63,215 nucleotides of DNA, filler included, from Sluysia triapertura (GCA_046118255.1; 5 parts of 5 records of this genome joined end to end with filler, not necessarily neighbours in it), one strand, 5' to 3'. Counted from the first letter of the whole stretch, positions 1 through 63,215 are shown. A program made the numbers and translations. The notes: a model not told the origin generated them from the letters alone.

Positions 1-936
1 CACACTCGTTTGTTTACATTGCTTTCCTTTCACCCTATTACTTTATGTCTAGAAATATTTCAAGAAAAGACAGAAAGATCGTGTAGTTAAAAAGATAGTA
101 AAGAATTTATGCATTGTATTTTTATTTATTATTATTATTATTATCTTATTATTACTTCTAATCATTTTATTATTATCACATTATTATCATTTTATTATTA
201 TATATTTATATATTTGACTTTGTCATCTTTGTATTATTGTTAATTATTGTTGTTATTATTGTGTACTATTATCATTATTCATATTTACCATGTAATGACT
301 ATTACGTAATAGTCATGATTACGTTGAAAATCAAGCATCAATTTTCTGCCTGTCACCTATCTATATCACCCAATCAGATGAACAGCAGTAAAGAATACAA
401 CCAACAAAATATTCATATCTGATTGGGTGAACCAATAAAAGTACAAAATTTTATAAAACTGTTCATTTCCCATCTTAATGTGAATGTAAAACTCATCTTG
501 TTTTTCAATTGGACGAATACAGAACATGAGTGTGTGCAGAATTGGTCATTCCTATATCTCGATTTGACGATTTTCTATCCAAAATATTAGATGGAATATT
601 TTGAATTTTTGCATATTAGTTAAAAAATTAATAATTGGTTAAAGTTAAAAAATAAATCAATTAAAACAGACTGTGAAAAAGATAGAGAAAAACAGCAAAA
701 ATTGAGAGGTTGAAAATAGATCAGTTAGACAGTCGTTAAAAAAAAGTAATACAAAATTTATTATTTTGGCAGCCGTTATTTTTTGATTAATAGTTCACAA
801 AATTTGAAATCGTGAACAATTAAATATCAGCAAATAAACCAGCCAGAAATAGAAACACTACAATAATTGCTTGAAGAAAAGATTACGAATTAAAAAATTA
901 ATAAAAGCAGTGTAAACCATTGTGAAAAGTCGAGAT

Positions 937-1296
937 TAAAAAGCTTCGATGATATGAATCTTAAAGACAATTCATTTAGAGTGATCAATCCAATATCTAT
1001 GCCGAAACGAACCGATTTAGAAACAGATTATGATAAAGACACTAAAAGCTTCGATGATATGAATCTTGAAGACAATTTATTTAGAGTGATCAATTCAATG
1101 TCTATGCCGAAACGAGCCGATTTAGAAACAGATTATGATAAAGACACTAAAAGCTTCGATGATATGAATCTCAAAGACGATTTACTTAGAGTGGTCAATT
1201 TAGTATCCATGGTGAAACGAACAGATTTAGAAACAGATTATGATAAAGACACTAAAAGCTTTGATGATACGAATCCTAAAGATGATTTACTTAGAG
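937..1296 (+). repeat. 105-bp (35-codon) tandem repeat, ~3.4 copies, of the eIF4A 5' end
   Basis: Equivalent codons at 954, 1059, 1164 and 1269 (period 105); unit KSFDDMNLxDxxxRVxNxxSMxKRxDLETDYDKDT. Confidence 0.95.
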
Positions 1297-1623
1297 ACAT
1301 ATATACATATGGTTCTAAAAGGCCCTCGGTAATTCAACAAATAGCTATGTTCCCTTCTATTGTAAGTAAAGTTGTTATGGCACAAGGTCAATCAGTTATT
1401 GGTAAAACTTCTACATTCAATGTGTCCACTTTACAGCGAATCGATGTAACAAAAAATGAGTTCTCTGTATTAGTTGTGGCGTCGATGAAAGATGACTATA
1501 TGGCAGCAAAATCCTATGAACGCATTAGAGGTACTAAAATGCAGGAAGATGTTGGAAGTCTAGAACGCGGAATTCGCGTCATTGTTGGAACCTCTGGTAC
1601 AGTTAAACATATGATCGAAAGAA
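954..1623 (+). pseudogene. EIF4A: Degenerate, truncated eIF4A (DEAD-box helicase) N-terminal fragment
   Basis: Translation SFDDTNPKDDLLRDIYTYGSKRPSVIQQIAM..AQGQSVIGKT..LQRIDVTKNE..VIVGTSGTVKHMIER parallels eIF4A [52 protein letters not shown].R. Motif Ia (PTRELA) is deleted, Walker A is damaged and no DEAD box follows. The rest of ORF 954-1997 is non-homologous read-through. Confidence 0.85.
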
Positions 1624-2079
1624 GTAATAAAATTAATTTTATTTATCTACTTAAATATCATGACTATCATATCTGTATTATCTTTATTAATTATAATTTT
1701 AGTACAATATACGACAAATCTGGAACCGTGAAGATAGAAACACAAAAGGGAGCAATTTCCGAGGATGCATTGTGTTATGTTGAAAAATTAAAGTTCATAA
1801 TAAACGTTCCTCGTATAACCTTTTGTCCTTGTTGTACATTTATAACCTATAAAATAAATCATCAATATTTTCAGAGATTTTGTTATTTTTTTAAGATGCC
1901 CTGGTATGACAGGTTAATAACGAATAAACATAAGACAGATAATTATCTAAAACCAACAAAATGTCCTGAGGAATTAAAATGTCTCAAACTATTATAATAT
2001 AATGTAAAAATAAATAAAATTACTTATAATCTCAAACAATTAACGCCCTCCATAGAGCGCCAAAACACATTAACAACCA

Positions 2080-3312
2080 CACTACTTTTCTACATTTGTA
2101 TGTATATAAAACTTCACCCATCAATCTACCAAATACTTCTTCTTCTAATGGAAGTAATAGTGTTACTAAATCTGGGTTTGTTATTGCTTTTGCTAATTTA
2201 GTTCTTAGTATTTCTTTATTTAGTTGACAATCTCTAGCTATCATGGCTTGATAAACTTTTTCCAATGATATAAGTCCTAAATGATTAAAAATCAATTTTA
2301 TTATTAAAATATGTATTTAATTGTAAATTTTTTGTAACTATTCCTTTATTGGTTTGTAGTATTATCTTTTCTGATAAATATACTCCTTGATAATTTGTTT
2401 CAGTAATTTCTTGTCCGCATCTGATGACTAATTTTTTTGACACGAATATTAGTCTATCTTCTTCTTTGTTTGCCATTAAAATAGTTGGAGTTTCTATTTC
2501 ATTGAGTCTTTTTCTTTCTGGTATATCTAAATTATCTTTATAAATTTGTTTTTTATTTATTTCTTCTACAGCTAATACATAAATCCCGAAATTAGATGAA
2601 ATTTAATTTGTTTCAAGAATGGACATTGAAAATTTTCCAATTCATATATTAATATAGATTCACCGGTATCATAACTTGTTTGATTACTTTTAAAATATGG
2701 TCTAGACATCATAGTACCTTTTTCTAAGTTAAAACTTTCATTAAAAGATTTTAAACTTACTACATAAATTCCCTGAGCTACAACATTATGGTAAATTTTT
2801 CCTTCGTATTATATTGAACCTCTTTCGCAAGTACCATCCATTAATACGTTACCAACGGTTCTAACATTATAAATATTTTCTAATTATTTTTAATTTTTAA
2901 TTTGTCTCCTTTGTTTAAACTTATGTATCCAGTTTCAAAAGCGTCACGACAATTGTTTGGTAATATCTTGAATGGTTTTAATATATTCGATGTATCAATA
3001 ATCTTAAGAGTGATTGTGATGTCCGCAATACCAAATAACTACAGATCATTTTACTAAGCATTCTCTAACCAGTGTTGTAACCAAATTTCCTTCTTGATAA
3101 ACATTTAACACTTTCATGTCTTATATTTTGACTCTATTTGGTCTTGATTCGGGACAATCTTCACTGTCCAATAAAAAAAACTTTTTTCCAATTTGGGGTT
3201 GGCTACAGTCAAAAGCCTTTATAGCATTGGTTTTATGAATTCCAAATAATGCTAGCAAAACAATTATAAATAACATATTATTTATTGAAGTTCCAAAATG
3301 TGGAAATTTCAT
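2080..3312 (-). pseudogene. Chuvirus-like glycoprotein (env-like), with stops and frameshifts, 3'-truncated
   Basis: Signal peptide, then IKAFDC..LLDSEDC, VRECLVK*SVVIWYCGHHNHS, CRDAFETG, GNVLMDGTCERG..YHNVVAQG and DCQLNKEILRTKLAKAITNPD..GEVLYTYKCRKV. These follow in order the motifs of chuviral-type glycoproteins (AYDC, CGMHSH, C..xH.TG, DG.C.G...NVVVQ, C.LE..VL...L.LA...PD, GEV.H..KC..V). Confidence 0.8.
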
Positions 3313-5289
3313 TTGAATTTCCCTTATAATTAATTAATTTTGATATCATGTTAAGCGGTTCATTTAAATCATTCTTTTCTTTTTTCTTTTTCTTTAATAA
3401 CATTTTAATAATATTTTCTTTAATAATAATATAATAATAATTTATTTAATAATATTTTTCAATCAAGGCACTTAATTTCTTGTCAACAAAGTTTATGACT
3501 TTATCTTTTCTTTGGTTAAAATGGCAGCTTTATTACATTGAAATATTATACAAGCCATTATTATTTCAAGTCTTTCTTTATTAATTCCTGCGTTAATTTG
3601 TTTGTTAATTATATTTTTATATTTACCATTGTTTATGAAATCACTTATGTCCGTATTCTTATATTTTTCCTCCATTATTTTAATTATCTTAGATAATACA
3701 TTTTTATATTCTTTTAATTCAGGTAATAATATCTTATATTTATCAAAGTTAGAAAATTTATTAGGTAGTAATGCGTAAATTATATTCTTAGTAGTTAAAG
3801 TTTCTTCTACATTCTTATAAGTAATTTTTGTTAAATCAATAGGTTTTCTATGTATTGAGGTTGGAATTATTGTTTCAGCATCATTTTCTTTATTTTTTCT
3901 GGGTCTACCTTGTCTTCTTTTAAAAGTATTTGTTTCTTTATTTGTTTAAGTCTACTATATAATCAGGTTTTTCTTCAGTGTAATCATCATTATCATTAGT
4001 AATATCTATAACTTTATTTTCATTATAATTATCTTCCATTAATTCTCTATCTAAATCAATATTATTATCATCATTTATTAATTCATCTAATTTTCTTAAA
4101 TAATCTAAAGGCTTCGTTTATGCCACTGATGCTTCCTCATGGTTTCCATTCATTTATATAATCATTAGGTGATAATTTTCTATCATAAAAATACAAATCG
4201 ACATCAGTTATAGTAGAGTCATTTGACTTGAGTAATTCTATAATATCTTTTGCAATTGAAGTTACTGGAAGTTCCATAGTAATATTCAGGTCATTATTAA
4301 TAATTATACTTATTTTCATTAATTCTTTAGGGTTATCTTTTCTTTCTTTTTGTCTTATTTTCCTTAATAATTTTCTTGCTTTAGTCTTGTATAAACTATC
4401 TCCCATACTTAGAATAGATAATATTAATTTAATATCGTATCCATTTTGTATACTTGATTCTAAATTCAATAAAAGATTTAAATTTTCATTCAAATCTTTG
4501 ACATTTGCCATATTTGATAAAAATTTCTCAACCTTTTGATTAGTTTCTTTAATTCTTATTTCTTATTTATTTCTTATTTATTCTTAATAGCTATCTTCTC
4601 ATTAGCAGTTATTATTATTGATTCCATTTGCTCTATTCCCATTTCTTCTGTGGCACTGTAATACGCATCTTCTTCATCTATCTCGATTTCTTCTGCTTGT
4701 TCTTCATCGTCAGTTTCTTTATTATTAATAATATTATCTATATCTGTTTCTACTTCTTGATCATCACATTATTCATTATTTGATTGTTTTTCTTCTTGAT
4801 TTGATTCTTCTTCTGTTGAACTTGATTCTGTATTTGATTCTTCTTCTATTTCATCATTACTTTCTTTTGATTCAGAATCTATTTCTTTTTCAATTATCTT
4901 ATTTGATTCAGATTTCTTTGTCTTTTTTTCCAATTTATCAATTATTTCTTCAATTCTTTTTCTTTTATCTTCATTTGAAATCAATTCTTTTATCTCTTTT
5001 ATTTGTTCAATACTTTCTTCCAAAGTTGTTCTAATAATTCTCGAATTCTAACCTGAATTGTTTGAATTGTTAATCTATTTTATTTTTTTCTCGTTATTCC
5101 CTTCTCTCTTTATCCTTATGGAATTCCAAATATCTATCATGCATATAACTCATAAAGATTTCTTCTTGTTGTTTATTCTTAAATCTATTTTCATCATAAT
5201 TTAATCCAGTGATATAGAATTCTCATAGCATTGCATTCTTTTCTTCATCAGTAATTAACTTAAGATATTTATCATCTTCTTCATCGCCA

Positions 5290-6220
5290 CTCATTCTCTT
5301 CTTCTTGGTTGTCTTCTACTCTTATTTCTTTTTGCACGATACTGATATTCTTCATCTTCATATTCATCTCTATTGTTTCCATAATCTTTTTGAATTCTAT
5401 AGTTAAAATTCACCTGTCCCTTATTCTTATTGTTATTATTATCATTAAACCTTACTTTCATATTAGGGCTTTGGTATCTTTGTTGATATTGGCCCATTAC
5501 CTTAGTAAAATCTTGGATAAATACATTTTGTCTTAATTTCGTACAATCCCTTGAATGTCCTTTTTATTACACTTGTCACAGATTATTTCTCCCTCTATAT
5601 TAGTTTGAGTCTTATTATTATTTTCGTATCTTATTGAACTATTAATCCTATTCATATTAAAATTAGAACTTGGTGGCCATCTCGGTGCTGGTCTTTGTTC
5701 ATAATTAGAAGTACCATAATTACTTGTTCTATTGCTTTGGAATCCTCTATCTCTATTATTTCCTTTGTAATTATAATTACTGAGTTACCCCTTTAATTGC
5801 TTGAATTACTTTTGTAATTATTTGAGTTGCTTCTATAATTATTTGAATTACTTATAAAATTATTTCTATAATTATTTGAATTCGAACTATCATTGCCTCT
5901 ACGTCATTATATTCTTCATAATTCACAGAATTAAATTTGTTATCATCATAACTATTTATTTTTCTTAATTTCGGACTTTTATCTCCTTTTTCTTCATTGT
6001 CACTTATATAATCAATATTATTCTTATTCTTTTTATATTTATAGGAACGTTCTATATTTCTTAATTACTTCTTTAAAAGGTTTTCCTTCTATGAAGGTAA
6101 CATACGTTATTAATTCTGGTCGTAACCTAGTTTTTAATTTATCTATTAATGTTATTTCTTTTTTTATCTTCAGGGATTTTAGCTCTAGAAACAAGGCTTT
6201 TAAGAGCACAAGCATATCAA
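5290..6220 (-). pseudogene. gag-like remnant (capsid C-terminal domain, N/S/R-rich linker, CCHC zinc knuckle)
   Basis: Manual minus-strand translation; the knuckle needs one frameshift in an A-run; multiple stops. Confidence 0.6.
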
Positions 6221-7469
6221 GATCTAAGAAATCCGTACAACTTCTGAGAATTTAAGAAAAATTATTGTGAAAATGATTAACTATTTATATTTGTTTCAGA
6301 TCGACCTTGGCTTTTTTAAATTTTAAATTTAAATATTAAATTCAAACAAATAAAAATATTAAATTAAATTTAAATATAATATTTACATTTAAACTGAAAT
6401 TAAATTTTAAAAATATTAAATATTACCTATATTTAAAATTTTGAATTATTTCACGACAATCAATAATAATAATTGTAATAATTCCAAAATTAATAAATGT
6501 GAATTCAAATAATTATTGTTAATAATAAAATAATAATTGTAAACATCAATAATCATAATATACACTACACACAAATCGCATAATAGTCAGAATCATAAAA
6601 TCAATAATTTATTTACAAATAGTTAGTATGTACAGTTATTTACAATCTAAAGTTTGATTTAACGTTTTCGTCTAAGGTTTGTATAATTGAATTAAAATTT
6701 TCTATCTGAAGATTGAATTAGCATTTCGTATCTAAGGTTTGTATAATTGATTTAACTTTTTTGTGTAATTGACTTAATATTTGGTGTCTTTTAATAAATA
6801 ATTATAACACTAAAGTTTGTGTTTTTTGATATCATTAACATTTTGTGTTTGATAAATTTTTGAATAAAATAATATTTGAATTAACACTTTGTATCCTTTT
6901 AAATAGTGATTATACCTCACCTACTCTCTAACTATAATAAATTCTCCATCAAGAAAATTCAATAAGTATCTAGATCTAGGAAACAGGTAGAATCAAGAAT
7001 AAGTATAAACATAAACCTCCAGTTCTTATCTTTCTTTTCTTAAGCTGCGAATCTATGTGATTGCCCTTCAGTGGGTAAGTTCAGTATCATAGAGAACTTA
7101 CGTTAAGAATAAGGCATTTAATTCCAATCAAATATCTATCTTTAATCACACCAAATCACAACAATACATTTGTTAATAATTTTTATTTTACTTTCTTATT
7201 TTGTTATTTAATTTTCTTTTGTTAAAAAAATAAAGTAAAAGATTAAAGAACAACGATACGTACAATTTAAGATAAATTATAAGGTAATCATTGAGGTAAG
7301 AATGAACACCACTAAAACAATTTCAAACTTAAATTTATATTTAAGCGATTGTTAAATTTAACGAGTAAGTTAAATCCGCTAATTAATTGCATCAAGAAGT
7401 TAAGGACTCTTTGACATCTTGTGAGTACGTCACGAGCGGACCCAGACTAATTAATAATCGTTTCAGTAA

Positions 7470-8160
7470 TAGTATAAAATCTGAACAGAATTCTTTAAAA
7501 CAACAAGGTTTCTCCGATCTGCCTATCACTAAAGGCTTTAACTTTTCTCCTAATATATTTACTCCCAAGAATATAGTAATTCGATCTTTAGGAAACCTAC
7601 CATTTGTCTTATCCTCTTTAGAAATTGTACATGTTCTGTTTAATAAACAGAATAGTCCGGTTTCGTCACAATTATAAACATTTCTATTCTCATATTCTTT
7701 TAATTTTGATATATGCAATCCCTTAAAATTAGGAATATACCTTTCATCCATGGTTTTTGATTCCCAAATAATTCTTTTGGACGATATCATATGCCTGGAA
7801 AGAAAAGAATTAAGTCGACAGCTTGATGCTTTAAAATCATGATTTCATAAGTGCTGTGCTAATTCTAATACATTCTGTTGCAATATATCAACACTGATAC
7901 TCTGATATTTGTTCACTGAATCTGGAACAATTCATACAGGATGGCATCTACTTTATATTCACTACGTAAATGTGTTTTCTTTTCTGTTTGGTATTCAAGT
8001 TTGACTTCGAAATGGAGTCTCTATATTTCATAAGATTATTTACACAACCTAATGAAAGATTTTATTTTGATGAAAGAAAGCATTGAGAACAACCTTTATC
8101 TTCAACAAATAATTTTAACAATTTCTGTTTCTCTTAGATTTGTATTTTTCATGATCATAA
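7470..8160 (-). mobile_element. pogo/Tigger transposase remnant
   Basis: NVYNCDETGLF..KDRITIFLGVNILGEKLKPLVIGRSEKPCCFK is the pogo DDE_1 signature; a degenerate CENP-B-type HTH (HDFKAS..) lies upstream. Confidence 0.9.
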
Positions 8161-8647
8161 AAGACAGTTAAAATGAATATTTAAACAAAACATATGGAGA
8201 AATTATTAATTTATTTATTAGTTCATATCATAAAACCATACGGTTTTCAATAATTTTTGACTTAAATGTTCATATTGAACAGAGTTAACCCTATTTCAAA
8301 TTAAAAGCTTTAAATGATGAATGAATAAAAATATATACAATATTATAGTATACATTATATAAAATATATGAATTATTTACTTAATATCTTAAGTAAAATA
8401 AATTCCACAAAATATTTTCTAATTAATTTTTGATTGGTTAAGCACTTAATACAACTTTCATTCAACATACGACCAAGTATTGACAAAGTAGTAATATCAG
8501 TGAAATTGATCGTACATTTGTAACTCATATTTCACATTTCTTGCAATTTTTGTCAATCATATTAAGAATAAAATTTATACTAATCAATCTTTATTAATGC
8601 AATTAAATTTTTTATTATTAAATCAGTAGTAAAATAATATTATTCAA

Positions 8648-9027
8648 ATGGTTGGATTAGAAAATCAAAGAATTCGTTCGAAACGTAGTTCCAGTATTCC
8701 TTGTATAAACAGTTCATTGTTATCTACTTCGAGACGTAACAGTGGGACAACACAAGAAGTTTCAGAATGGAAAAATCATTACTTCGTTCATAAAGAATTA
8801 GGCAGAGGTCATTTTGCTAAAGTGTATCATGTTATTCATTCACTTTCGAGACAACATTGTGCTGCTAAAGTAATTCGTCGACGTCGAGCTGGTACGGATC
8901 GTATTGAAAGTATTCGGGAAGAAATTCGAATAATGAAGAAAGTCTGGGATGAAGGATGTTGTACGAGTGTAGTTAAAGTATATGAAGTGTATGAATCAGT
9001 CATTGATATTGGGATCATCATGGAACT
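8648..9027 (+). CDS. STK17: STK17/DRAK-like (DAPK family) Ser/Thr kinase, first coding exon only
   Basis: ELGRGHFAKV..CAAKVIRRRRAGTDRIESIREEI..VVKVYEVYES..IIMEL resembles STK17 ELGRGKFAVV..AAKFMRKRRKGQD..IIHEI..LHEVYET..LVLEY. Ends at a phase-2 GTAAG donor (9028). Later exons not found before the linker. Confidence 0.8.
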
Positions 9028-10679
9028 GTAAGCGTTTTCTAAATTTGGCATTTAAAGATTATTTTTAAAATTAATAATTAATTTGAAGGCATTATCTTTT
9101 GAAATTACAATTAAACGTTATTTATTTATTATCAAAAATTTTTAAATATTAATTATCTAATTCTAAGGTTATATTAATGAAAAATTCATGATATCATTTC
9201 AGATATCGATTATTTAAATATTAATGTAATAACTAATTATTTATTTGCAATACTAATACTAATAATGATAGTTTGATTTAAAAGTTTTGATTTCTGAAAT
9301 TAATCAATGTATTTAACCATTTAACAGTGCAATTTATTTTATTATTAACTTTTTCGAAAACTATTTTTATAATAATATATTAATTTTCATTGCTAAGCGC
9401 TTAAAATAAATACAGCATTATCGATTATAAAGAAACTTGTCTTTAAATCTTCAGTAATTTGATATTTTCAAACAGAAACGGCACACAATGTAATCTTTGT
9501 TGCTACAGTGAATTCTGTATAAAAACATTCATCTTGTAAATACTCATAATTTTGGCATTTTTCTTTTATATAATAAAGTGCCTATTTGTCAAACTTTAAA
9601 ACATGCTAATAGATTTTGACTAAAAATTCGACGTTTTGTTTATTTTGCTTCAACTTCGAACCAAACTAAATACGACTTTAAAAAATAATATAAAATTAAA
9701 TTAAATTAAATTATTACAAATTCAGCCAAATATTTGACAATTACTAAGCCAGGTACAAATATTGTGTCAAATTTTATTGGTTAAATGATGTATTAAGAGA
9801 CAGAAATAATTTATCTGTGTATGTGTTGGTGTGTGCAAGGTTTGTGATTGCACAATTTGCAAATTGTGTTAATGCATTTTTACAGCAGGCATTATTTCAT
9901 GCTGACTCATTAATTTTTAATTTAGCCTAGATTTTTGTGTTAAAAGTACAACAAGAAATATTTCGTAAAAATTTAATCGATTTTATCATAATTTTAAAAT
10001 CTATTTAGATAAAGAAATTTGTTTCGTATAAATAATCGATAATATTAAATATAACAGTTTTTCGTAAGTTTTTATTATTGATCATTTTTATTTTAATTGT
10101 TATCATCATAAAAATTAAAATTAAAAATTGCATTTAAATAAATTACAAAAATAATTAATTAATTAATCGAAAAATGATATATATATATTTATAAAATTAA
10201 TACGTGATCGTTGTTGAATCTTTCTGAATTTCCCATGTATATGTATAATTTAAACACATTTTTACTGGACACTTTGTTTATTTCTTTTTTTTCATTTTGG
10301 TAAGTATATAAACAACAACAAAGATAATATTAATTAAGCGATTTGATTTCTTGTTTATTTTATTTTATTTTCTGTGATATTTCATTAGCTGTTGCTGAAC
10401 CAGAGCTTCCTTGACACGAATTCTGTAAGACCGACTTGGGTGTAGACTTTTCTACAGGATTTTCGCTTAGAATAAAATGATAATTGATTTTATAAAGATT
10501 TGATCTATTGAATGAAAAGGCAATAAAAGACTAATGAATATTTTTATCCCAAGTATATATATAATATATAACTATTTTAATTGTGGATTTGATTCTGATT
10601 TTAATAATATATGTAATATTTAATATTAATATAAGTTAATACTGATGACATTAATATTATTTTGTTAGATTATTCTATG

Positions 10680-11300
10680 ATTCGCGAGCCCCTTGTTCTT
10701 GAAAAACATATTTAATGTATGTTATCCTGAATCGTGGAATAAGGAAGAAGTTATGTCTCCATAGTCAGAAGGAGAAAAGAGAATAAGAACTGTGAATTTT
10801 ATTTTGAAAAATGAGATTAAAATAAATGGTTTTAGAGATTTAGTAGAAAATTACAAATCGAAATTCCCAATCGCGCAGTTAGCAGCGCTGAAGCTGAACG
10901 AGCTTTTAGTTACATGAATAATATCGTTACAATGAAAAGATCTTCTCTCACTGTTAAACACGTTTCAGATTTTATGACGATCTGCTTTAATGGGAAATAT
11001 TTGGAAGAATTTAACCCTAGCCTTTTTAAACTCGTTTTGAAAAATCACTGCTCGGCTCTGAATAAATCTAAAAGATCACAGACAGCTTCTGGCAAAGTTG
11101 TAAATCTTTTCTTGTAGTAGTACTTTTTTACAAATGGTATATTTTTTCTTTATTTTATTCTATTGTATTGTTTGTTCTATTTCTTATTAATATAATATTG
11201 TTGTCTTTTGTATTATTTTGTTTTTTTATGTCCGTCGGAGTGACACATTGCTAGAGTACCAGTTCATACGATTCTCGAGGAAAAAAAGAGCCAGTCCCCA
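10680..11300 (+). mobile_element. hAT transposase C-terminal dimerisation-domain remnant (ZNF862/KIAA1586-like)
   Basis: SAEAERAFSYMNNIVTMKRSSLTVKHVSDFMTICFNG..LEEFNP matches the hAT dimerisation motif (AExERxFSxMN.I.T..R..L); frameshifted. Confidence 0.8.
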
Positions 11301-11597
11301 CTATCTATCTCAAACGATCATATATTTATATTTCCAATAAAAAGTACCGCCAGGAAAGAATATGTGATACCATCCAACAGATTTGCGAGTTCTTTAGAGA
11401 AACATTTATGATTTAGCATATTTCCAAGGTAGTATCTCTCATATTAACGAATTTTTGAAAACGTGAACTTGTTAATTTATTTGTTTGTTAATAAATAAAT
11501 AATCTTATTTATTTAATCTTATTTATTTACAGCATGTTCACTTTGAGACAGTTTCTTCAAGTAGAACGGACAAAAATAATAACTATTCAACAATGTG

Positions 11598-11967
11598 TTA
11601 AAAAGACAAATACTTACTGATTTTATTATTCAACTTCTGCTTCAAATGAGACAATTTCAAAGACTTAATATTCAAATTCGAATGGACTGTTGTCAGCGCT
11701 TGACGAGCACTTCGATAAACACCGCCCGCCCAATACAAATTCAGAATATCGAGTATGACAGCACAACCCAACCATACCATGTCGAACATGTAACCGTGAT
11801 CCATGTGCACCTTCTGGTGCTGCTCTCCGCCAAGGTCGTAGTACACCATTAACCAATAAGGCAAAATGATCCAGTTGCGGACAATGAAAAATATAGCGGC
11901 AAAAACTAAAGTGGAAAATGCCACTCGTTTGTGACTAGTAGTCAAGCCAGCTGTTAGGAAAAACCAT
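11598..11967 (-). CDS. TMEM56: TLC-domain membrane protein (TLCD4/TMEM56-like), terminal exon
   Basis: CAG acceptor, then (R)WFFLTAG..IFFIVRNWII..WLGCAVILDILNLYW, matching TMEM56 RWFF..VFFIVRI..WVISCVVLDVMNVMW; ends in TAA. Confidence 0.75.
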
Positions 11968-12021
11968 CTGGATTAATGTAATAACATTTGTATCGTTATT
12001 ATTTTAATTTATTGTTTAGCA

Positions 12022-12495
12022 CAGGGATCGGCAACGTTTTGGCTACGTGGGGCCGGATTGCGCCTTTTTGATAGAATGCTGTGCCGTTTAACAAATTCAT
12101 CACCCATGAACGGTTTCATAGCTTGCACGGGTACAAAATGATGTCTGCTTATCATCATCTCTCCTGGATTATCCAGTAATTTTGTTTTAAAATTTTCAAA
12201 ATAGTGGGTCATGTAATGGCGCCTGATATTTGTCACTTTATTCACAACAACCTTCTCAAGGCAAATAAGACATGTTGGGTTTCCATTTTGCTCGATAGAA
12301 AAATAATCAAACGTCCAAATATTTCGAAAAATTCGACACTCGCTATCCACTTTGCTGATCTTTGAATTCATGGGTTAATTTTGATGAATATTAAAACACT
12401 TTTTATTTACTAAATTTATTATCGTTATTTAACATGTGGTCATGCGCCAGTCAAATATTTTCATAAGCTTGTCAAAATCCTTTCGCGGGCCGAAT
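12022..12495 (-). mobile_element. Internally deleted hAT (SPIN/Charlie/Buster-type) element
   Basis: SKVDSECRIFRNIWTFDYF..PTCLICLEKV...NIRRHYMTH is the zinc-finger N-terminus of SPIN/GTF2IRD2-like transposases; CAGGGATCGGCAAC terminus at 12022; GGGCCG subterminal motifs at both ends. Confidence 0.85.
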
Positions 12496-46545: not shown

Positions 46546-47173
46546 GTTAAAATACTGTATGATCAAGAACAAAAAGGTCCAGTGACAGCTCTAACAAGTT
46601 GTCGAGGATTATTGGTAAGTGCTATCGGACAGAAAATGTACATATGGCAGTTACGCGATGGGGAATTAGTTGGTATTGCTTTTGTCGATACAGATAGTTA
46701 CATTTGCAGCCTATCGGTTGTCAAAGATTTGATTCTAGCTGTGGACTTAAACAAAACAGTTCAGTTGGTTCGCTTTCAACATGACTTACGAGTTTTGTCG
46801 TTAGTAAGCCGTGGTCCCCCGACAGGTTCGAAAAATATAAATACAGGAGGCAGTGTCATTACGTCGATCACCAACGATTTGCAGTTGACAAATCTGGGTT
46901 CTGTGTCTAGCTTGATATCTGGTGTGACAAGTACTTTATCACAAACTGCTTTTTTATCATGTGATATCAAACGTAATTTGATGGTACTTGGTTATGATCC
47001 AACAGATGTCAATTCTCGAAATGGACGTCAATTGGTACGTTGGGCGGACGGAAGATTGCCAGTACAATTGTTTGCATCTCTGAAATTAAACGATCGTGTT
47101 AGAGACCCATTATTTTATACTCCCAGTACGCTGCAGTTGTCACATGATGTTTTCAAACAATCCGTGTATTTTA
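46546..47173 (+). CDS. CPSF1: CPSF1/CPSF160, penultimate exon
   Basis: VKILYDQEQKGPVTALTSCRGLLVSAIGQKMYIW..IAFVDT..RVLSLVSR matches CPSF1; TTTTTAG acceptor and phase-1 GTAAGT donor. Confidence 0.93.
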
Positions 47174-47780
47174 GTAAGTTTTATTTAATGAAAATATATT
47201 AATTTCTTTAGTTGATAAACGCAATAAATTAATCGTCTGTATTAAGTTATGGATATTTTTTCAAGGTGCATCTATAATTGATTGTAATATTAATTAAACT
47301 TTTGAACCTAGGCACGTGCCTAAGGCCCGTAATTTTTGCGACCCAAAAATTAGGTTTTTAATTTTTATTTATTAGAAAAACGTGATATTCATAATTATTG
47401 CTGAAACGTATCCTTGATTGATGCAGTGGACGAGCGTTCCCGTGCTTATTGTGCATCCACGCCCGCGAGTGTCTGTGTGCCTTTATCGTGTCTTTATTAT
47501 GCACTGAAAAATAGGCCCAAATGTTACAATTACAATGTTGCCCAGAGCCCGCGTTAGCCTTGAACATGAAGTACAAAGAAATTAGATTTTATTTTTTTCT
47601 ACTGGCGAATAATTTCCGTGCAGTTTCATGCTTTAAATAATTGGTCGAGTAGAACTTAGATTCAAATTCTTAGTTTCTAATACAGCAGGGTTTTTGCCCT
47701 TATTTCAATTGTGCAAAAAGAATAATTAAGTTTTACAAAATTTAAATACTTACCAAAAATGAAATAAGGGCGGAAACTCT

Positions 47781-47841
<61 letters not shown>

Positions 47842-47885
47842 AGCAAGAATTGGTTGTTAAATAAATTAAAACCGTTATTTCTTTA

Positions 47886-48036
47886 CCACGCTAATTTTAC
47901 ATGGCGTGCCAGTCTGACCAAAATGAATATTTTGATGAAATATTATTTACAATAGAACAGTTAATTTTTGAACTCATTCGTGATGCATTTAATTCACTGA
48001 GGTCACCGGTGATCCCCATAGCATTCAACATGTTAA
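47886..48036. mobile_element. piggyBac-type MITE fragment in the CPSF1 last intron
   Basis: ccacgctaattttacatggc.tgcc.gtc..ccaaaatg shared with 12988-13028; ends GCATTCAACATG-TTAA. Confidence 0.7.
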
Positions 48037-48128
48037 AACGAATAGAAAATGTAACAATTTATAAACCAATAATTTTCTTAATTATTTATTATTTTCCCTG
48101 ACATCCAGCGATTATATTTCTATTTTAG

Positions 48129-48445
48129 GCTCAACTCTGGGTTCTGTGTACCGAATATCACCATTAAGTAGTAGTCAATTGACTGAGCTGCAGTTAGCGG
48201 AGAAGAATCTGGCTACATATGTGCATCATTATGCTGGATTGCATTATAAATCGTGCCTGCAATACAAATTCACTAGGAAAACTCTCATGAATTCTGTAGG
48301 TAATATCGCTGATGGAAATTTGTTGTATCGATTTATTGATTTACCACACAGTCAACAAATCGAGATCGCAATCAAAGCCGGAGTTACGATTGATGTTATT
48401 TTAGAAAATTTGACAGAATTATATCTGAGCACTCTGCATTTCTAA
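48129..48445 (+). CDS. CPSF1: CPSF1/CPSF160, terminal exon
   Basis: Phase-1 TTTTAG acceptor; HYAGLH.K..NIADGNLLYRF.DL...Q.EIA.K.G.T.D.ILENL..TLHF* matches the CPSF1 C-terminus. Confidence 0.92.
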
Positions 48446-51857: not shown

Positions 51858-52245
51858 TATGCCTTACAAACTACTAAATAAATGAAGAACTTTAAGCATA
51901 AAGTAAGTTTAAGATTAATTAATTAAAATCTTAATTAACTTAATTAAGAAAAGTTCGTTTTTGTGAATAACGTTTGAAGCGGAATGCTATATTTGAAACT
52001 GTTTTATGGTTTGATCGAGTTCATGCAAGGAAAGCCTTAATATTGAGTAAAGTCAAATTTTAATTAATTCTTAATCATAGAATGTTGAATTTTTAATACT
52101 TAGAGTGATGCAAATGTGATGAATGGAATATGAGATGATTGCTATGGAAGAAGAGAATCTGTAAGTGAGTACGAAGTGTTTGTAAAATGGTTCGTTTGAG
52201 AATAAGAACCTTAAAACATTTTTCATTAGAACATTGGGTGCGAAA
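51858..52245 (+). mobile_element. Partial copy of LTR-like repeat (3' part of 57436-58341)
   Basis: Colinear high similarity with ~57906-58353, including the downstream ttgggtg.gaaa. Confidence 0.7.
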
Positions 52246-54235: not shown

Positions 54236-55897
54236 TCATCCCTTCAACGATTCAAGCCCAGCACGCATCATTTCATCAACCAACAACAAATTAGTCGCAA
54301 TGACACAAGACGAGTCCAAAATTTGCTTTTTGACGCAGTAATTGTCATATACTCCATTTTCGTGAGGTCGCATAGGTTCTCCACTATCTAAATCGATTCC
54401 TACGGCAGTTTCACCAGTTATTTTCACATCTCCACTACTCTCAATTTTACGAGATTCGTGCAACAATTTCACCTCAGAATCTTTAACATCGAATCCGGAA
54501 TTTTGAGCTAACACTCTTAAAATTACAAGTAAAGCATTTGCGAACGCTACAACACCGTATACAACACGACCACTCAAACTTTCACTATATTTCATCAAAT
54601 CTAAATAAGCACAAACTTCAAAAGCACCTGCTCCAGGAATTACACAACCATCATCAATCGCATTTTTCACCGCCTTTAATCCATCATTGATTGCATCTTT
54701 GATTTGAGTTAAAGTATGACGATGAGGACCTTTAATTAACAAAGTTACAGATAAAGGATTCTTACAATTTTCAACAAAAGTAAATTTTTCATCACCTAAA
54801 GTATATTCATAAACCAAGCCAGCTTTTCCTAAACAATCTTCACTCAATTCATCAACTGAATTAATTGCAAATCCACCACAAGCTAAGGCTAATCTTTCCA
54901 TATTTCTTCTTTTTGCACGACGCAAACCCAAAATACCCTCTTTAGCCAGCATATCTAATGATAATGGATCAATACCTTTTTGATTGATTACAACAAAAGT
55001 TGATTTAACTTTTGAATCTGCTTTATCGCAAACTTTTCGTTTAAGTTCCACTATTTTTCTCACTCTTTCATCGATAAATTCTCGTTCAGCTTGTACTAAC
55101 TTTTCTCGTTCTGCAGCACTTTTGTAAAAAAACCCACTGTTTATTTCAGTCTTTTCATATTCTAATGATACATTACATGTCAAAATAAAAGCATTTTCTA
55201 CTCTTTTTGGCATATCTGGATGTCGACCACCATGATCAAGTACAAGGCCACGAATTAAGGTACTGTCCATATCTTGTTTGTGCTGCATTTGCATAATCTC
55301 AACTCTGTGTAAATCTAATTCTTCACTAGTAGTAGGATCATATACTGCTAAAACTGAATCAACAATATCATTACTTAACTTTTCTGCCAATTCCACATTC
55401 AACTTGGTTTTAATTGAAGTTAAGGCAACTTTCACTAAAGTACTTCTGTCAAGCTTTTCGGTTTTGATTTTTAATTTATCTAATAAACTTAGACAACGTA
55501 TTTTGGCTAAATCAAATCCTTCCGTAATAATTCTGGGATGTAATTGTTGAATAATCAATCCATCATACATTAAACCATCAGCTTGTCTTAATAATTCTGC
55601 AATCATGAGAACAATACTCGTAGTACCATCTCCAGTAATATCATCTTGGGCTGTAGCTACACGAGCTATTAAACTTGCAGTTGGATGTTTAATCTGCATT
55701 TCTTGAAGACAGACATTACCATCTTTAGTAAGTTTAATATCACCTGCACCCGAAACCAACATTTTTAGAGTTCCCTTCGGTCCCAAATTTGATTTCAAAA
55801 CATCATACAAACCTTTAGCTGCTGTTAAATTAATATTAAATGCATTCTGAGATTTTGCATATTCTGCTTTAGGATTTAAAGCTGCAATTGATGCCAT
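54236..55897 (-). CDS. CCT6: T-complex protein 1 subunit zeta (chaperonin CCT6), full length, single exon, 553 aa
   Basis: [85 protein letters not shown]; uninterrupted ORF. Confidence 0.97.
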
Positions 55898-57365
55898 GGT
55901 TTTCTCGAATTATCCAATCAATGAAATTTAAATTTAAATTAAATGAAACAATTTTTACTTTAATCTGAAAAAACAAACTAATAAAACGTGTATTAAATCT
56001 AAATAATTTTAATTTATTTAAAATAAAATAAAATTATAAGCAATTTTACTAATCAAGAAAATAAAATAATAAAAAGAAAATAATGAATAATCTACTTTAA
56101 ATTTGAACAGCTTTGACTTACATATATTTTTTGTCATTTTTAGATAATCATTAAATGTTAATGCACTTCTCAGCAGTGAAATTAATTTAAAATGCATTAC
56201 TAAAGTTTAGAGATTAAAATAAGCTATGTTATTAAAAACGAATCCATGTCATGCTCAAATCTATATGAAAAGATCCTAAATGGATTTTAATATATTTAAC
56301 CGAATTTTAGATTTACATGAAGTAAACAAGTGATGCGATTTTTCTTATTCTTATCTGCGGAAAAATAAATTTTAGTATAGTCTGGTTGAAGTATACAACT
56401 TACGACGTAAATAAGGTGCACCTGTAACTAAAAGTGATAAGATTAACTGCATATCTCTAAATCTTAGTTTCTGTATTAGATTTTAATTTAATTGTACCTA
56501 CTCCGTAGAAAAATTATATTTTGTATACTGACTTTGTAAATTTAATTCATTTTTCAATTAACTTACAATGATTATTTCATAAATTAACAAGTGAACAATC
56601 TTTTAACTAAAAATTATATATAAAATAAATATAAAACAATAATACAATTAAGGCGCCAGATACACAAGATAGAAAGATTGAGAAGATTTTAAAATTAAAA
56701 CTTGTTAGGACTTTAATTTTTCAAAACTTCTAATTTTAAATGATAATTTAAATTATAATTAACAGGAGATTGGTAGGAAACATATGACCATATGAATTCC
56801 CCTTTGGTACTTCGAAACAACTATAAAAAACAACTTACAATATTAATTTATCTTATTTTCTAAGAAACATTCTAGAATTTAACTCGTTTATGATTGGCTA
56901 TTGGCTTATATAAGTAGCTGAAGTTAATCATAAGTCCTCACTAGTTATTGGTTAATTGTTGTTTTTCTTGTTTTTTTGAGCTGGTTCATTAGTACAAATA
57001 ATATTAATGGCTGCATAATTCTAAATTGGTATCGAATTTTTCAAATTCCGCAATTTGGATTGCTGACGAGGAGCTTTACTGATCAGTTTGTATCTTAAAT
57101 TTCCAGGCAAAGTTGCTTTTTATAAGGTTGTTTTCATTTTTCCTGTTGAAGTAAAAATATTAAAATGCACTTAAAATCTATGTAAAAGATATTTTTTTAT
57201 CGTGATGTAATAAGGAGAATAATTTACAGTTAAATTCATTTATATATTGAAAAAATTAAAGATCTTACTTGATTTTAATTTTAAAATATTAATTATTTTT
57301 ATTTGTTCTGTCTATTTTATTTTGGTATTTCAGTGTTGTGTCTTTAATAGATTTTAAGTTGTTTG

Positions 57366-57435: not shown

Positions 57436-58341
57436 TGTTAGGATGTCCAACCGTGCAATAGGAGATGAGTAAGGACATATAGAACTATAAAGTCATGGAA
57501 GAACTGATACAAAGTGATGGATTGAACATTATAAACATTCTTGAAATAAGAATCATGAAAAGAAAACATTTATAATGATGTTAATAGCTAAAGAATATCT
57601 TAAGGGTTTGAGACCTTATGGAAGCTTGAGATAAACTTTAAAAACCTTTAGGAGCATTAAGTTACCTTTGAACTAGTGAACCTTTAGATCATTTAAGACC
57701 TTAGTAACCTTTAAGTATCTTGGAACATCGATAAGCATTTGAGATCCTTTATTAATCTTATAAAGTGATTAAAATCTTTAAAATAATTGAGAAATAAAAT
57801 CATTGTTATTGATATTAAGAATAAATCTAGTATAGTAATAATTAACATGAATAAGTAGAATAAGGAATCAGAGAGGCGAATGTGAAAACATATAGAGCCT
57901 ACTGAATGCCTTATAAACTACTAAATAACTTTAGAACCTTAATATAACCTCTAAACATAGAATAAGATTAAGTCTAAAAATAGATTAATTAATTAAAATC
58001 TTAATTAACCTAATTAAGAAAAGTATATTTTTTGTGAATAACTTTTGAATGTGAATGCTATGTTGAATTTGAAACTGTGTATATATTTGTTTTAAAAGAC
58101 CTTTCGATTAAGGTACGGTTTGAACATGTTCATGTAAGGAAAGCCTTAATATTGAGCAAAGTCAAATTTTAATTAAATTTTAATTATGGAATTTTGGATT
58201 TTTAATACTTAGAGTGATGGAGATATGATGAATGGAATATGAGATGATTGCTATGAAAGAGGAGAATCTTTAAGTGAGTTTGAAATGTTTTTAGAATTGT
58301 TCGTTTGAGAATAAGAACCTTAAAACATTTTTTATTAGACA
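57436..58341 (+). mobile_element. Putative LTR (~0.9 kb, TG...CA) followed by a TGG primer-binding-site-like sequence
   Basis: Starts TGTTAGGATG, ends ..TAGACA, then AT-TGGGTGTGAAAC; 3' half repeated at 51858-52245. Boundaries are inferred. Confidence 0.5.
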
Positions 58342-59669
58342 ATTGGGTGTGAAACGTACGATTGACGCACAACGTTTTATTGTGAAATATTTCTGTGTGA
58401 AATAAATTTATTATTTCCTGAATTTTATCGTTAAATTAAATTGACAAATTATGATATTATTATAAAAGCAGTGTAACAATGATTTTAAATTTTAATTAGA
58501 TGGTATTAAGAAGATAAGGGATTTTTTTCACAAATCCCACTATCTTTATATAATTGGAATGATAATAAAGTTGAACAAAGACGAAATTGCTGTCGACATT
58601 TAATCGGCGAAAGTATTCGGCTTATTACCGACTAAAAGAGAATAGACAACTTTAATTTCCGTCTTGTTCAATTTCTTATTTTTAATTTCCTGAAAATATC
58701 ATAATCAGTTACAATTTTGCATAAAGTTAGAAAGCAGAAAAGAGATAGAGATAAGCATTAAGAAGATTAAAGAAAACTTTCTAGCTGCAGGGACGTTGCT
58801 TCATTTCATCAGTAGATATTTACTTAGAAATCAGCTAGTTAGTGAATTATTTTGTATTAATACGGATGCGGTTGTGGTTTGTTTTTTAAAGAATAATTTA
58901 TATCTTTTGTGATAATTCTGAATTTGTTTAATTATTGAGTTTTTAATTGATAATTTGTAAAAATAAAAAAAGATACAAAAGACATAACAAATCTATGTAA
59001 CTAGAAACTTACTACTTGAAAATTAATCGATAAAAATGATTTGATTTAGTTTTGTGGATTTTCGAATACTGATATTGACGAATCTTAAGGATTAAAGTTA
59101 TTCAACCGTTGCAAATTTAACTCAAAAAATTTGAAGAATTGTAAATATCAAAAAATTGTAAAAATCAAAATTGTGAGTGAAAACTATAAAATAATTGCTA
59201 TGTATCTTCTTTAAAAAGTCCATTAGTATCTATTTTATAATCTAGAATCCATTAATGTATATTAATTTTATTTTCACAAATTTCATCAATTTAATTGACT
59301 ATTTCATTAATATCGATTAATTTAATGAATTATTTTATTTTATTTATTTCGTTTTATTTATTTATTTCGTTAATTTAAGAGATTTCTTTTTTTCATAAAT
59401 TCCTAATTAATTTTAAAATTTGTATTTTTTTATTTTAATTAAAATTTGTAGATAATACTTATAATATTTTATAATAAAAATACAAATTTTAATACAAAAA
59501 ATAAACTTCTTTTTACATATATTATTATTATCATTACAATTATTATTACTATTATTATTATTATTATGTTTATCATCGTTCAAATTAACTTTCTTTTCAG
59601 TTTTGACAATACTAACATCTGGAATATCATCCATAAAATTTAATGAATTCAAAATTATCGACATAAGTC

Positions 59670-60195
59670 TTACGCATTGGCCATCACCTTAACGATCACG
59701 ATGATACAACACGATCAATAATGTCACCAATTTCAATATCTCTATCGTTTAAACAAGAATCACCAAAAGAATCTCTAAAATACGATAATTCAAGTGATGA
59801 TAATTATAATAGAGAAATATCTGAAGCAACCACGTCAGTAATGGAAAATGGTCAATATTGTACTACTCTAGTTTCTAGATGAGCTAAATTAATTTCTATA
59901 ACTGATCATTTTTAGTTTAGTAATGAAACTTTATATCTAATTGATGTTTACGGAGAATTTAGACTTCATTTTATGAAAGTAGTTATGAAGCTTGAAATAA
60001 AAAGTGGAGCTATTGATTTGCAAGATTTTAAGCTATCAAAGAAGTGTTTATCTTCATCTACTAAAATGATACGGATTGAAATTCCATCTAATTCATTGAC
60101 GAAAATTGTTGATATTGAAGTAGTTAATAAAATTAACGAAAGTTTTGCTAAGAATATTTATGTTATAATTGATAATACATTTTTATTACAACTTT
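59670..60195 (+). pseudogene. CTH: Cystathionine gamma-lyase (CTH) pseudogene, N-terminal half, intronless
   Basis: RSIMSPISISLSFKQESP..YCTTLVSR*..LIDVYGE..STKMIRIEIPSNSLTKIVDIE..IYVIIDNTFL parallels CTH RAVVPPISLSTTFKQGAP..YCLAFASG..MDDVYGG..ETKLVWIETPTNPTQKVIDIE..LVVDNTFM. In-frame stops; ends before the PLP lysine. Confidence 0.82.
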
Positions 60196-63138
60196 GTCAA
60201 TTAACTTTAAATCATGTTGTTTACGTAACAATGTATTTATTAACAAAACATGTCAAAATTAATAAAAGTGTTTCGATAAGAATATAAATGTTGTATTTGA
60301 TAATACGATTTTATCAACAGCTTTTAAACAACCTTTAAATCATGATGCTTAAGTAACAATTCATTTATAAACGAACTATATGAATGTTATTCAATACCTC
60401 ATGACAATCTTTACAAATGTAAACTGAAAACATCAATATGATATAATTGACACAAATGGCAGTTTCATTATTATCTCGGCACGATACAATACATCGATTA
60501 TCGGAAGAACATTTGGCGAATCGTGATTCAGCTCCATAGATGAAAAACTATGTTATTTGCCACTTCAAGTACGATATTTTAAATTTTATTCTGATTCCTT
60601 TTTAGTTGATTTTTATTCTTATTTCGATACCTTTAAAGTCCTGCCTACAAAATGTTCAGTGATGTTCCGATATTTTATGCTATATAAATTATCATCATTT
60701 GAATGTTTAAATATAGCTCAGCTAAAGTACATGTTTAATAAATGCTTTTTACATTATTTTTCTTATTCATTTTTTGATAAAGTTAATTTAAGTCTTAGAA
60801 TGCATAAAAGAAGTTTTAATAGATGTAATTTAATAATGAAAGTTAATAATTATTATTCAATTGAGCTAATACTAAATAAATCTAAATCTTATTTTAATAA
60901 CCGCACACCAAATAAATTTAATCAATTCAATAATTATCATTTTTGTAACTTCACACCAAATGCTTAAGTTTGTATGTAAACTTAAGTCAATAATATACTA
61001 TTTACAATAATAAGTAGTATATTATTGATAAAAATTAACTAAACAAAGACGTTAAGTTTTTAGTAACTTATTGGTTTTAGACATTATTTTGCTTTTTTTA
61101 TGTTGAATGCTATAAACGTATTCAACAAAGAAAATATGACTCATTATTTATCACAACTAAATTTTTTTATTTATTATTATTTTATAAAATTATTTTATTT
61201 ATACTGAAGTAAGTTTTGCTATTAATATAATTAATGTGTTTTAGTATGAAGTAACAGAAGAAGAAATGTGATTTTTGGAAAGTTGTCAAAGAACAAGATA
61301 GTTCAGAAATCAAAAATATTGAGAAGTAATTTTTTATTAAATTAAATTTTAGATTATTTACAAATGGCAAACAAATCGAAATTGGAAATAACATGAAGAA
61401 GGTATATTGAGAAATTCGTAAGGGAGGTATAATAATAATACAGGAAGAATTTATATAAAATGAAGGAAAAACAGTAAAACATTGTTAAATTAAGAATGAT
61501 GAAGATGAAAATATCTGCATTCATTTTGGAAATTGAAGAATACCTTAGAATTCCAAAGACTGAAGAGAAGGCCTGAAATTGGCTTGGACACTCTTCCCGA
61601 TTAAATTTTTAAAATATTTAAGCATCATTACTTTTTTAAACTTTCTAGATATTGATATTTTTACTGTTTGTTGCGTCACTCCTGGTTTTTTAAGATATAT
61701 TGTTATATCCTTGATACTATTATAAACGTTATTGTTAATCTCGTCATTTTAGTTATTTTTAGTATTGTTTATAATTGGAGATTTATAATAATAATAATTT
61801 GTATTAGATTTTTGTTTAACCATTAAATTACTGTGCTGTTCTTATTAATTTGATTTTCCAAAACTTAATTTTGGGATGAATATTTATTATCGGAATAAGA
61901 GAATAAGTGAAAACTTATACTTGATATAGTGAGTATTTAAATCATTGAGATACTTTTTAAGTTAATTAAATTGACATGACTTATCGTAGCTAATAATTTT
62001 CAAAGACGCAACATTTATAGAATGTTGTTTATTTGTATATCATTATTTTATTTTCACTAAATCAAACTTACCTAAGCAAAATGTACCTTAATGGTTATGG
62101 GTTTACATAGAGTATGCGGTTTACTTTTACTTTACTTAATTAATTATAATTTTTTCTTGTATGCTAAATTCAATAATTTGTTCAAGCCTTTTTCTTCTAA
62201 TAACTTAAGGGTCTAATTATTGTTACTGATAGTTGATCTGATTCTTATTCTTAAATTATTGATTAATAATAATAAGTAAGGAAAACTTAACTTGAATAAA
62301 CTTAGGGATTTTAATAAAAAATTTCCAAAATCAAAGTGTTTCTAGAATCGATAATAATATGAATTCTTCAAAATCAAATGTCGCTGCTGATTGATATGTA
62401 AATCTACTAAGGTTATAAGAAGATTGATAAGTATTGTTAAATAATTTTTGTGGCTATTCGCAAAAATACTCTTCTTTATATACTTATTTAATTTAATCAT
62501 AAATACATTTTTTACACGATTTTAACTAAAACAAACATAAATTAAACTAATTTTAATTTAAACAAATTTAAAATTTAATAAGATATTATAAGTAAAAGTA
62601 ATCTGACACATTTAATGTATCTTCGAGAAACTACATTACCTATGAATTTAACTTTAATGCCTGATACAAAAATATTTAGGGGAAGAAAATTATCAACAAA
62701 TAATGAAGAAAATTATTTTATTATGCAAAATTATTTTATTATTTCTATGGGTTTGTCTATAATCTATGATTTATATTTTTGTGAAAGATCTATCAACGAC
62801 ATTCTAGCTACTCATATTTATTACTTTTTTCTACTTTGATTCGTGTAAACTTCAATTAAGAACTTTCGGTTGATCATAAATATTTTATGATAATTTTAAT
62901 AATACAACGTGATTTTCTTAACAATGACTTATAGTTTGTAATTCTAGTTAATAACAATAACTATATTAACAAGAGCGACTAGAATGACACTACTCTAGTT
63001 TATTAAAACCTAATGAATAAATTATACTTTTAAAAATGATTTTATTACTATCGTATTAAGATAGCAGAAATACTTACAGTTTATACTTACCTTTTAGAAA
63101 AGAATCGATCGAACAAGTTTGTCATAGATTAACATGGA

Positions 63139-63215
63139 TTAACCCTTTGACTACCAATGGGACGATGGGTCCCACAGAAACTATGTTCTACATCAGTAGG
63201 TTAAAAGTAGCTTTA
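63139..63215 (+). mobile_element. piggyBac-type terminus (TTAA-CCCTTTGACTACC…), runs off the window
   Basis: Near-identical inverted match to 28480-28554. Confidence 0.85.

Follow-up and report, generated by a model that had tools for sequence, protein, structure and literature searches.

Decayed fragment of a multicopy flatworm retroelement with a chuvirus-type envelope, probably a planarian GAG-ENV-POL Ty3/Gypsy errantivirus

Ty3/Gypsy retroelements bearing an envelope (env) gene have been listed in large numbers (1512 elements), nine of them in flatworms, and all nine combine a glycoprotein B (gB)-type Env with the gene order GAG-ENV-POL (PMC13524379). Six families of such errantiviruses occur in Schmidtea, with 1 to 215 copies each (PMC13524379), and ancient inheritance of env has been argued (Chary and Hayashi, eLife 2026, PMC13524379). 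The planarian Gypsy element Burro encodes a Gag with two or three zinc knuckles, Ubi/SUMO-like and BCL2-like domains, and an in-frame env matching mononegavirus fusion glycoproteins, followed by protease and pol; decayed, stop-bearing Burro fragments are known from Dugesia japonica (PMC6431247). Here we describe the remnant of an element of this kind in a 63,215-nt stretch from Sluysia triapertura (GCA_046118255.1; five records joined with filler), referred to as the window.

The remnant lies on the minus strand at 2083-6320, limits set by contig depth and env homology, and is an internal fragment of about 4.2 kb, broken inside gag at its 5' side and inside env at its 3' side. Judging from its sequence and that of its relatives, the region is very probably a stop-riddled, doubly truncated copy of a multicopy flatworm retroelement, likely a planarian GAG-ENV-POL Ty3/Gypsy (compact Burro-like) errantivirus. 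This copy is dead, being unable to encode its proteins, and has neither long terminal repeats (LTRs) nor pol.

The 5' three-fifths of a chuvirus/Monjiviricetes-type class III fusion glycoprotein occupy 2083-3327 (minus strand), as indicated by a Pfam match, by tblastn to three relatives described below (L001-L003) and by motifs of the Schmidtea Env. Pfam family PF24664 (Monjiviricetes_fusion) matched 2575-3276 with E 2.7e-18 (profile positions 5-194 of 653) and 2035-2316 with E 6.5e-8 (positions 325-387); when the frame was read whole, with X at the stops, the match reached E 1.5e-25, above the curated cut-off of 27 bits. Env ends at about 2083, so that some 59% of the profile is kept (3-387 of 653), without the transmembrane end. 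An earlier reading of the window, made from the sequence alone, had described here a signal-peptide glycoprotein of chuvirus type (class III, gB-like) serving as the env of a retroelement, and the PF24664 match agrees with it. The motifs it had named, AFDC (3216), CGHH (3027), HNHS (3018), DGTCERG (2838) and GEVLYTYKC (2118), are all on the minus strand in the order claimed, each occurring once across the window's six frames, and a hydrophobic signal-like stretch (3276-3223, read by eye) lies upstream of AFDC. Nine in-frame stops fall within the first 234 codons, and the frame changes twice, near 2575-2530 and 2288-2283.

Other searches returned little. Two env pieces, compared by word index with longer proteins only, a test of little weight, yielded no relative among 366 and 188 candidates, respectively; three queries found no relative among viral contigs, query P0001 found none among metagenome contigs, and its search against PDB sequences returned unrelated repeat proteins only. 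No nucleoprotein or RNA-dependent RNA polymerase was present among the 26 window open reading frames (ORFs) scanned against Pfam. A GP41 match (E 0.012, below cut-off) was taken as a chance coiled-coil match.

The stop-free env piece P0003 found three loci among 428 candidate metagenome stretches, all from one sample and 61-66% identical to P0003. Env of the window matched env of L001-L003 in three colinear pieces (tblastn, E 1e-51 to 1e-62, 28-66% identity). L003 holds a single ORF of 3,703 amino acids (aa) and L001 one of 3,426 aa, open at its 5' end, whereas L002 has a 999-aa ORF, a stop, and then Env to the contig end. Pfam matches follow the order zf-CCHC, ubiquitin (weak; E 0.0047 and 0.018), Monjiviricetes_fusion, aspartyl protease, RVT_1, RNase H and integrase. 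L003 thus presents, in a single frame, Gag, a helical plus ubiquitin-like module, a Bcl-2-like domain, Env, protease, reverse transcriptase (RT), RNase H and integrase; L001 shows the same layout from the ubiquitin-like part onward, and L002 as far as Env, with the stop ahead of it. Gag and env are linked in L002 and L003, each of which carries both on one locus, in agreement with the earlier reading, and the pol of L001 and L003 is Ty3-like and not of BEL/Pao type. When the RT-RNase H of L003 was compared with PDB chains, yeast Ty3 was the closest (E 6e-90), the next reaching E 3e-56. Pao-type Pfam domains, which we take to be Peptidase_A17, DUF1758/DUF1759 and DUF5641, were absent from the 17 families matched in L003 and the 14 matched in L001, and from L002 and the window.

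Some further features of these loci may be recorded. The L001 and L003 contigs contain no direct repeats of at least 40 nt. The lone in-frame stop of L002 (3058-3060), between the Gag-accessory ORF and Env, reflects either decay or read-through; L001 and L003 have an open frame at this point. A separate downstream ORF (L001 10617-12107, L003 12085-13473) matches an RNase_T (DEDDh-type) exonuclease, with E 1.4e-5 and 1.1e-3 respectively, and is adjoined in both by a short coiled-coil ORF. The polyproteins contain two or three protease-like stretches, as well as long extra segments with hydrophobic helices and no Pfam match, located 3' of integrase in L001 and L003 and, in L001, also ahead of the last protease; taken jointly, stretches and segments span aa ~1290-1940 and 3000-3426 of L001 and aa ~1950-2230 and 3330-3703 of L003.

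Gag and the region between gag and env were read with profiles built from the relatives alone and run on all 1230 window ORFs of at least 25 aa. To 6048-6315 (minus strand), where the frame changes near 6168, we assign the C-terminal portion of the capsid domain of Gag: the capsid profile of L002 and L003 matches 6216-6151 (profile 107-129) and then 6167-6048 (126-164), colinearly, and the extension to 6315 was judged by eye and from contig depth in the public run X1. The first capsid piece ranks second of the 1230 ORFs (E 2.1), a score reached by none of 1000 shuffles. Downstream, at 5543-5580 (minus strand), a single degenerate CCHC zinc knuckle (nucleocapsid) is split across two frames and is one residue short ahead of its last Cys; it was read by eye and with the relatives' profile. 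That nucleocapsid profile matches 5622-5563 (rank 3 of 1230, E 0.45) and 5554-5411 (rank 2, E 0.045), again in colinear order, and the score of the second piece was likewise reached by 0 of 1000 shuffles. The canonical pattern C..C....H....C occurs in none of the six frames of the window, and Pfam finds neither gag nor zf-CCHC there, so that of the gag-like region with a CCHC knuckle in the sequence-only reading the knuckle stands at its place, but broken over two frames and with no Pfam gag; the identity of gag in the window is drawn solely from the matches of the relatives' profiles. Env had been placed about 2 kb downstream of the knuckle on the same strand, and the measured distance to AFDC is 2364 nt, or 788 codons, compared with 824 and 723 in relatives. 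The stretch between knuckle and AFDC belongs to the element and is not filler.

Within that stretch, all on the minus strand, a charged, acidic low-complexity spacer (4574-5300), defined by its translation, multicopy in X1 and without any Pfam family match, precedes an accessory module at 4140-4562. The module, recognised with the profile of its L002 and L003 counterparts, would comprise a four-helix domain, possibly TFIIS-N/IBD-like, and then a likely ubiquitin-like domain; it ranks first of the 1230 ORFs (E 0.062), with 1 of 1000 shuffles scoring as high. It is followed at 3496-3945 by an RGRPRK motif (3895-3918), which we take to be AT-hook-like, and a likely decayed Bcl-2-like domain (~3532-3816), assigned from the L001-L003 profile (rank 2 of 1230, E 0.53; 2 of 1000 shuffles as high) and from PDB matches. 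L002 also has RGRPRK ahead of its Bcl-2-like domain. Taken together, the four pieces ahead of env rank first to third of 1230 ORFs and keep the order and strand seen in the relatives.

The pre-Env domain is likely Bcl-2-like, as suggested by sequence and model comparisons that are weak but agree with one another. With its alignment (A2), 41 of 46 PDB sequence matches were Bcl-2 or Bcl-xL, the best (E 0.089) ranking below two designed repeat proteins, and a low-confidence model of the L002 domain (pLDDT, the predicted confidence score, 50.8) gave Bcl-2-family chains in every Foldseek row listed, the best at E 7e-3. For the module, alignment A1 returned ubiquitin-like PDB chains, a few of them presumably so, in all but 5 of the 60 matches listed (the best 60 of 105). 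A model of window ORF 4140-4562 (pLDDT 62.7) shows four helices plus a beta-alpha domain; Foldseek gave it no match at E <= 0.001 and listed no ubiquitin-like chain, and the structure search VIA had no ubiquitin-like chain in its 50 listed rows, all filled by residues 1-80. Those residues resembled HEAT-like repeats and TFIIS-N (TND) domains at Z 7-9.6, within the chance range for helical bundles; the TND matches were an LW domain (Z 8.7, 79 of 84 residues), the integrase-binding domain (IBD) of LEDGF (Z 8.1), MED26 (Z 7.6) and Elongin A (Z 7.5). TND domains are small and were matched over most of their length, and unrelated HEAT repeats scored equally or better (Z 9.6). It is therefore a tentative idea, rather doubtful on these models, that compact planarian enveloped Gypsy elements may carry a TND (LEDGF integrase-binding-domain-like) module in the polyprotein, two in L003, beside ubiquitin-like and Bcl-2-like domains. 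Were it so, the element would come with its own version of a fold for which HIV integrase turns to its host, and the module could tether integration or capture elongation factors. The cited literature on these elements does not contain a TND-like domain, although no dedicated search was made. In L003 the helical plus ubiquitin-like module occurs in tandem, as two copies at 1660-2100 and 2329-2856 (alignment A1).

Copies of the remnant were studied with contigs of run X1 aligned to 1950-6450 at 85% likeness (n = 11,073). As 7,902 of the 11,073 are less than 95% alike to the window, most are other copies, diverged from it. Summed depth was 3,096-289,696 in all 28 bins from 2101 to 6328 and 0 in the bin 6329-6450, as compared with 77 and 26 over single-copy-like DNA at 8401-9000. 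Thus gag, middle region and env are all highly repeated, with one common sharp upstream edge inside gag. Reading this depth as a copy number was dropped, given that it is summed across overlapping contigs and X1 may be the window's own source. Linkage of env with the middle region in another copy is weakly indicated by one contig that connects 3161 with 4262. At the other end, homology of env to the relatives stops at 2083 (tblastn). Pol-like remains gave no match beyond 6400 at E < 0.9 with the relatives' profiles and none anywhere in the window at E <= 1 by tblastn; no LTR-like repeat flanks the fragment among the 20 direct-repeat families listed for the window.

The described elements that come closest are the flatworm GAG-ENV-POL errantiviruses with an Env of the HSV/gB type (HSV, herpes simplex virus; Smed_errantivirus_1-6, cysteine type C1a), which share with the remnant a flatworm host, a gB/chuvirus-type Env and a multicopy state. 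Env motifs and indel pattern are held in common with the Platyhelminthes_C1a rows, as far as the alignment parts of PMC13524379 extend. Four motifs, chosen after one Schmidtea row had been viewed, gave 12 matches among its 229 Env sequences, all within five of the six Schmidtea rows. HNHS, CGQE, YCGHH and AFDC had no match in the part of the supplement covered, where alignment gaps hide motifs and AFDC falls outside the region given. In two ungapped blocks aligned by eye, with 76 residues in all, identities numbered 35 with Smed_errantivirus_2 and 14 with mosquito BEL-51. Env lies between gag and pol in the Schmidtea errantiviruses; the window shows gag and then env with no pol between them, and pol stands behind env in L001 and L003. 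Unlike those elements, the window copy is dead and truncated. The main text of PMC13524379 has 0 mentions of Bcl, ubiquitin, accessory or exonuclease, and the content ahead of Env is not comparable from that text.

Burro/GYPSM1 has, in one polyprotein, a CCHC Gag, Ubi/SUMO-like and BCL2-like domains, Env, protease, RT, RNase H and integrase (Arkhipova and Yushenova 2019, PMC6431247), with counterparts in the relatives described here, likely ones in the case of the Ubi/SUMO-like and BCL2-like domains. The giant Burro differs in exceeding 30 kb and in its ORF of 4,873-5,140 aa with MATH, BIR, ankyrin and dUTPase domains (PMC6431247), as against 3,703 aa in L003 and the 788-codon gap from knuckle to Env in the window. 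Those four domains had no Pfam match in L001-L003 (E <= 0.05) or in the window's three frames (E <= 3), where decay could hide them. Anakin, a mosquito BEL/Pao element (Dezordi 2020, PMC7642597), has an Env of the same broad class, but its backbone is BEL/Pao, its host is an insect, and its kind of Env is far less similar (the 14 of 76 of mosquito BEL-51). The Jingchuvirales (chuvirus) glycoprotein profile, PF24664, is matched by the window's env above its curated cut-off; here, in contrast, the glycoprotein stands within a retroelement.

Gypsy rather than BEL/Pao, as the sequence-only reading had it, is likely because the relatives have a Ty3-like RT and no Pao domains, and the window keeps their order and spacing. 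Several points weigh against the assignment as a whole. Neither pol nor an LTR of the window's own family came to light, so the class comes from relatives 28-66% identical in env and from one sample; their RT was classed by Pfam domains and PDB likeness, and to our knowledge no BEL/Pao RT is present in the PDB as a competitor of Ty3. An env can in principle move between backbones. Both by-eye blocks were selected for alignment with the Schmidtea row. Each assignment ahead of env is weak alone (E 0.045-2.1), with other ORFs scoring alike, and neither gag nor the accessory region was matched at E <= 1 by direct tblastn with L001-L003. For Bcl-2, the model is that of the L002 domain and not of the window's, has a pLDDT of ~51 and matched nothing in Foldseek at E <= 0.001; structure searches (Foldseek, VIA) gave no support to a ubiquitin-like fold in the window itself. 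Finally, it is the single joint from 3161 to 4262 that connects env with the accessory region in other X1 copies.

A very unlikely alternative is that the remnant belongs to a non-autonomous family of gag, accessory part and env, which lacked pol from the start and relied on a related Gypsy element for copying in trans. The lack of pol in the window would agree with it, and so would the high apparent copy number across exactly the gag, accessory and env parts; L002 too ends ahead of any pol, but at the contig end. Against this, the copy is broken inside env at 2083, so the following part is missing, and L001 and L003 have pol in frame behind env. It is very improbable that a Gypsy element of this host group captured a chuvirus glycoprotein in an independent and unrecognised event, the interpretation favoured by the sequence-only reading. 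That env matches a Pfam family named for Monjiviricetes fusion proteins would suit such an event, as would the absence of a clear Gypsy capture in arthropods, at least in the part of PMC10084718 used, and the finding that GAG-ENV-POL elements are not monophyletic (PMC13524379). However, a Gypsy element with this env subtype between gag and pol is already published for planarians (PMC6431247, PMC13524379), which removes the claim of an unrecognised lineage; the motifs of that reading are mostly found in Schmidtea rows among the 229 Env sequences (CGHH 1 of 1, DGTC 2 of 3; PMC13524379), the accessory domains also follow the Burro order, and an independent capture is not supported, PMC13524379 arguing for ancient inheritance. 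Env was most likely inherited with the lineage and not newly captured. The use of a single knuckle as a Gypsy marker in the sequence-only reading fails as well, the relatives having one (L002) or two (L003) and Gypsy-type Burro three or two (PMC6431247). Least probable of all is a BEL/Pao (Anakin- or Tas-like) element with gB-type env, since, although mosquito BEL/Pao elements carry this env type (PMC7642597), BEL/Pao elements exist in Schmidtea (PMC3118150) and a copy without pol permits no direct exclusion, both pol-bearing relatives have a Ty3-like RT and no Pao-type domains, the gag pieces of the window fit the profiles of those relatives, and by eye env shares far more residues with the Env of Schmidtea Gypsy (35 of 76) than with that of mosquito BEL (14 of 76).

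As a planarian-type GAG-ENV-POL Gypsy element, the family would most likely carry pol behind env, in the part past the break at 2083, as in the relatives, and by analogy with Ty3/Gypsy biology its copying would proceed through reverse transcription and then integration. Env would be directed into the secretory pathway by an internal signal sequence, which would free it from the polyprotein, and protease and pol would be kept cytosolic behind the Env transmembrane helix. If Env behaves as other class III fusogens do, its trimers would fuse particles with other cells, with cell-to-cell spread as a possible outcome; the Bcl-2-like domain would possibly dampen host cell death.

The remnant is a new example of a published kind and not a new lineage. 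It matters little alone, adding one more flatworm genome to those with planarian GAG-ENV-POL Gypsy elements. Together with L001-L003 it suggests that the ubiquitin-like plus Bcl-2-like cassette of the giant Burro is also present in compact relatives and would therefore predate the growth of Burro, which matters somewhat because an anti-apoptotic region of Burro1 reportedly supports the stem cells of planarians (as cited in PMC13465017).

The host was placed with the CCT6 gene of the window (54236-55909, minus strand), which is intronless and of flatworm-type length. Its best full-length named matches are flukes and tapeworms (65-67%); two fused proteins from other taxa outscore them on account of their length. 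A FastTree analysis of 34 of 121 CCT6 sequences groups the gene with two others (support 1.0), sister to flukes and tapeworms (0.85). By sequence affinity, then, the host belongs to the flatworms but not to the flukes and tapeworms sampled, and is likely a planarian. A 241-nt direct repeat (88%; 52005-52245 and 58114-58354), likely a dispersed repeat, flanks this gene, and a 75-nt inverted pair (99%; 28480-28554 and 63139-63213) is probably of the same nature.

Other host gene exons encode CPSF_A (46546-48445, plus strand), a protein kinase (8633-9031, plus), a TLC-domain protein (11598-11972, minus) and a Cys/Met-metabolism enzyme (59916-60287, plus). Remains of DNA transposons at 7392-7844 (minus), 10836-11117 (plus) and 12009-12374 (minus) gave DDE_1, hAT dimerisation and Spin-doc zinc-finger matches, all below cut-off. 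Beside the remnant, a frame of 367 codons without stops runs over 894-1997 (plus); it contains three repeats of 105 nt (939-1307) and, after them, a degenerate DEAD-box stretch that matches Pfam DEAD below cut-off (E 3e-5) and presumably resembles eIF4A. X1 depth of 4,000-12,000 over 901-1800 suggests that this region is multicopy, and the helicase piece perhaps lies within another repeat.

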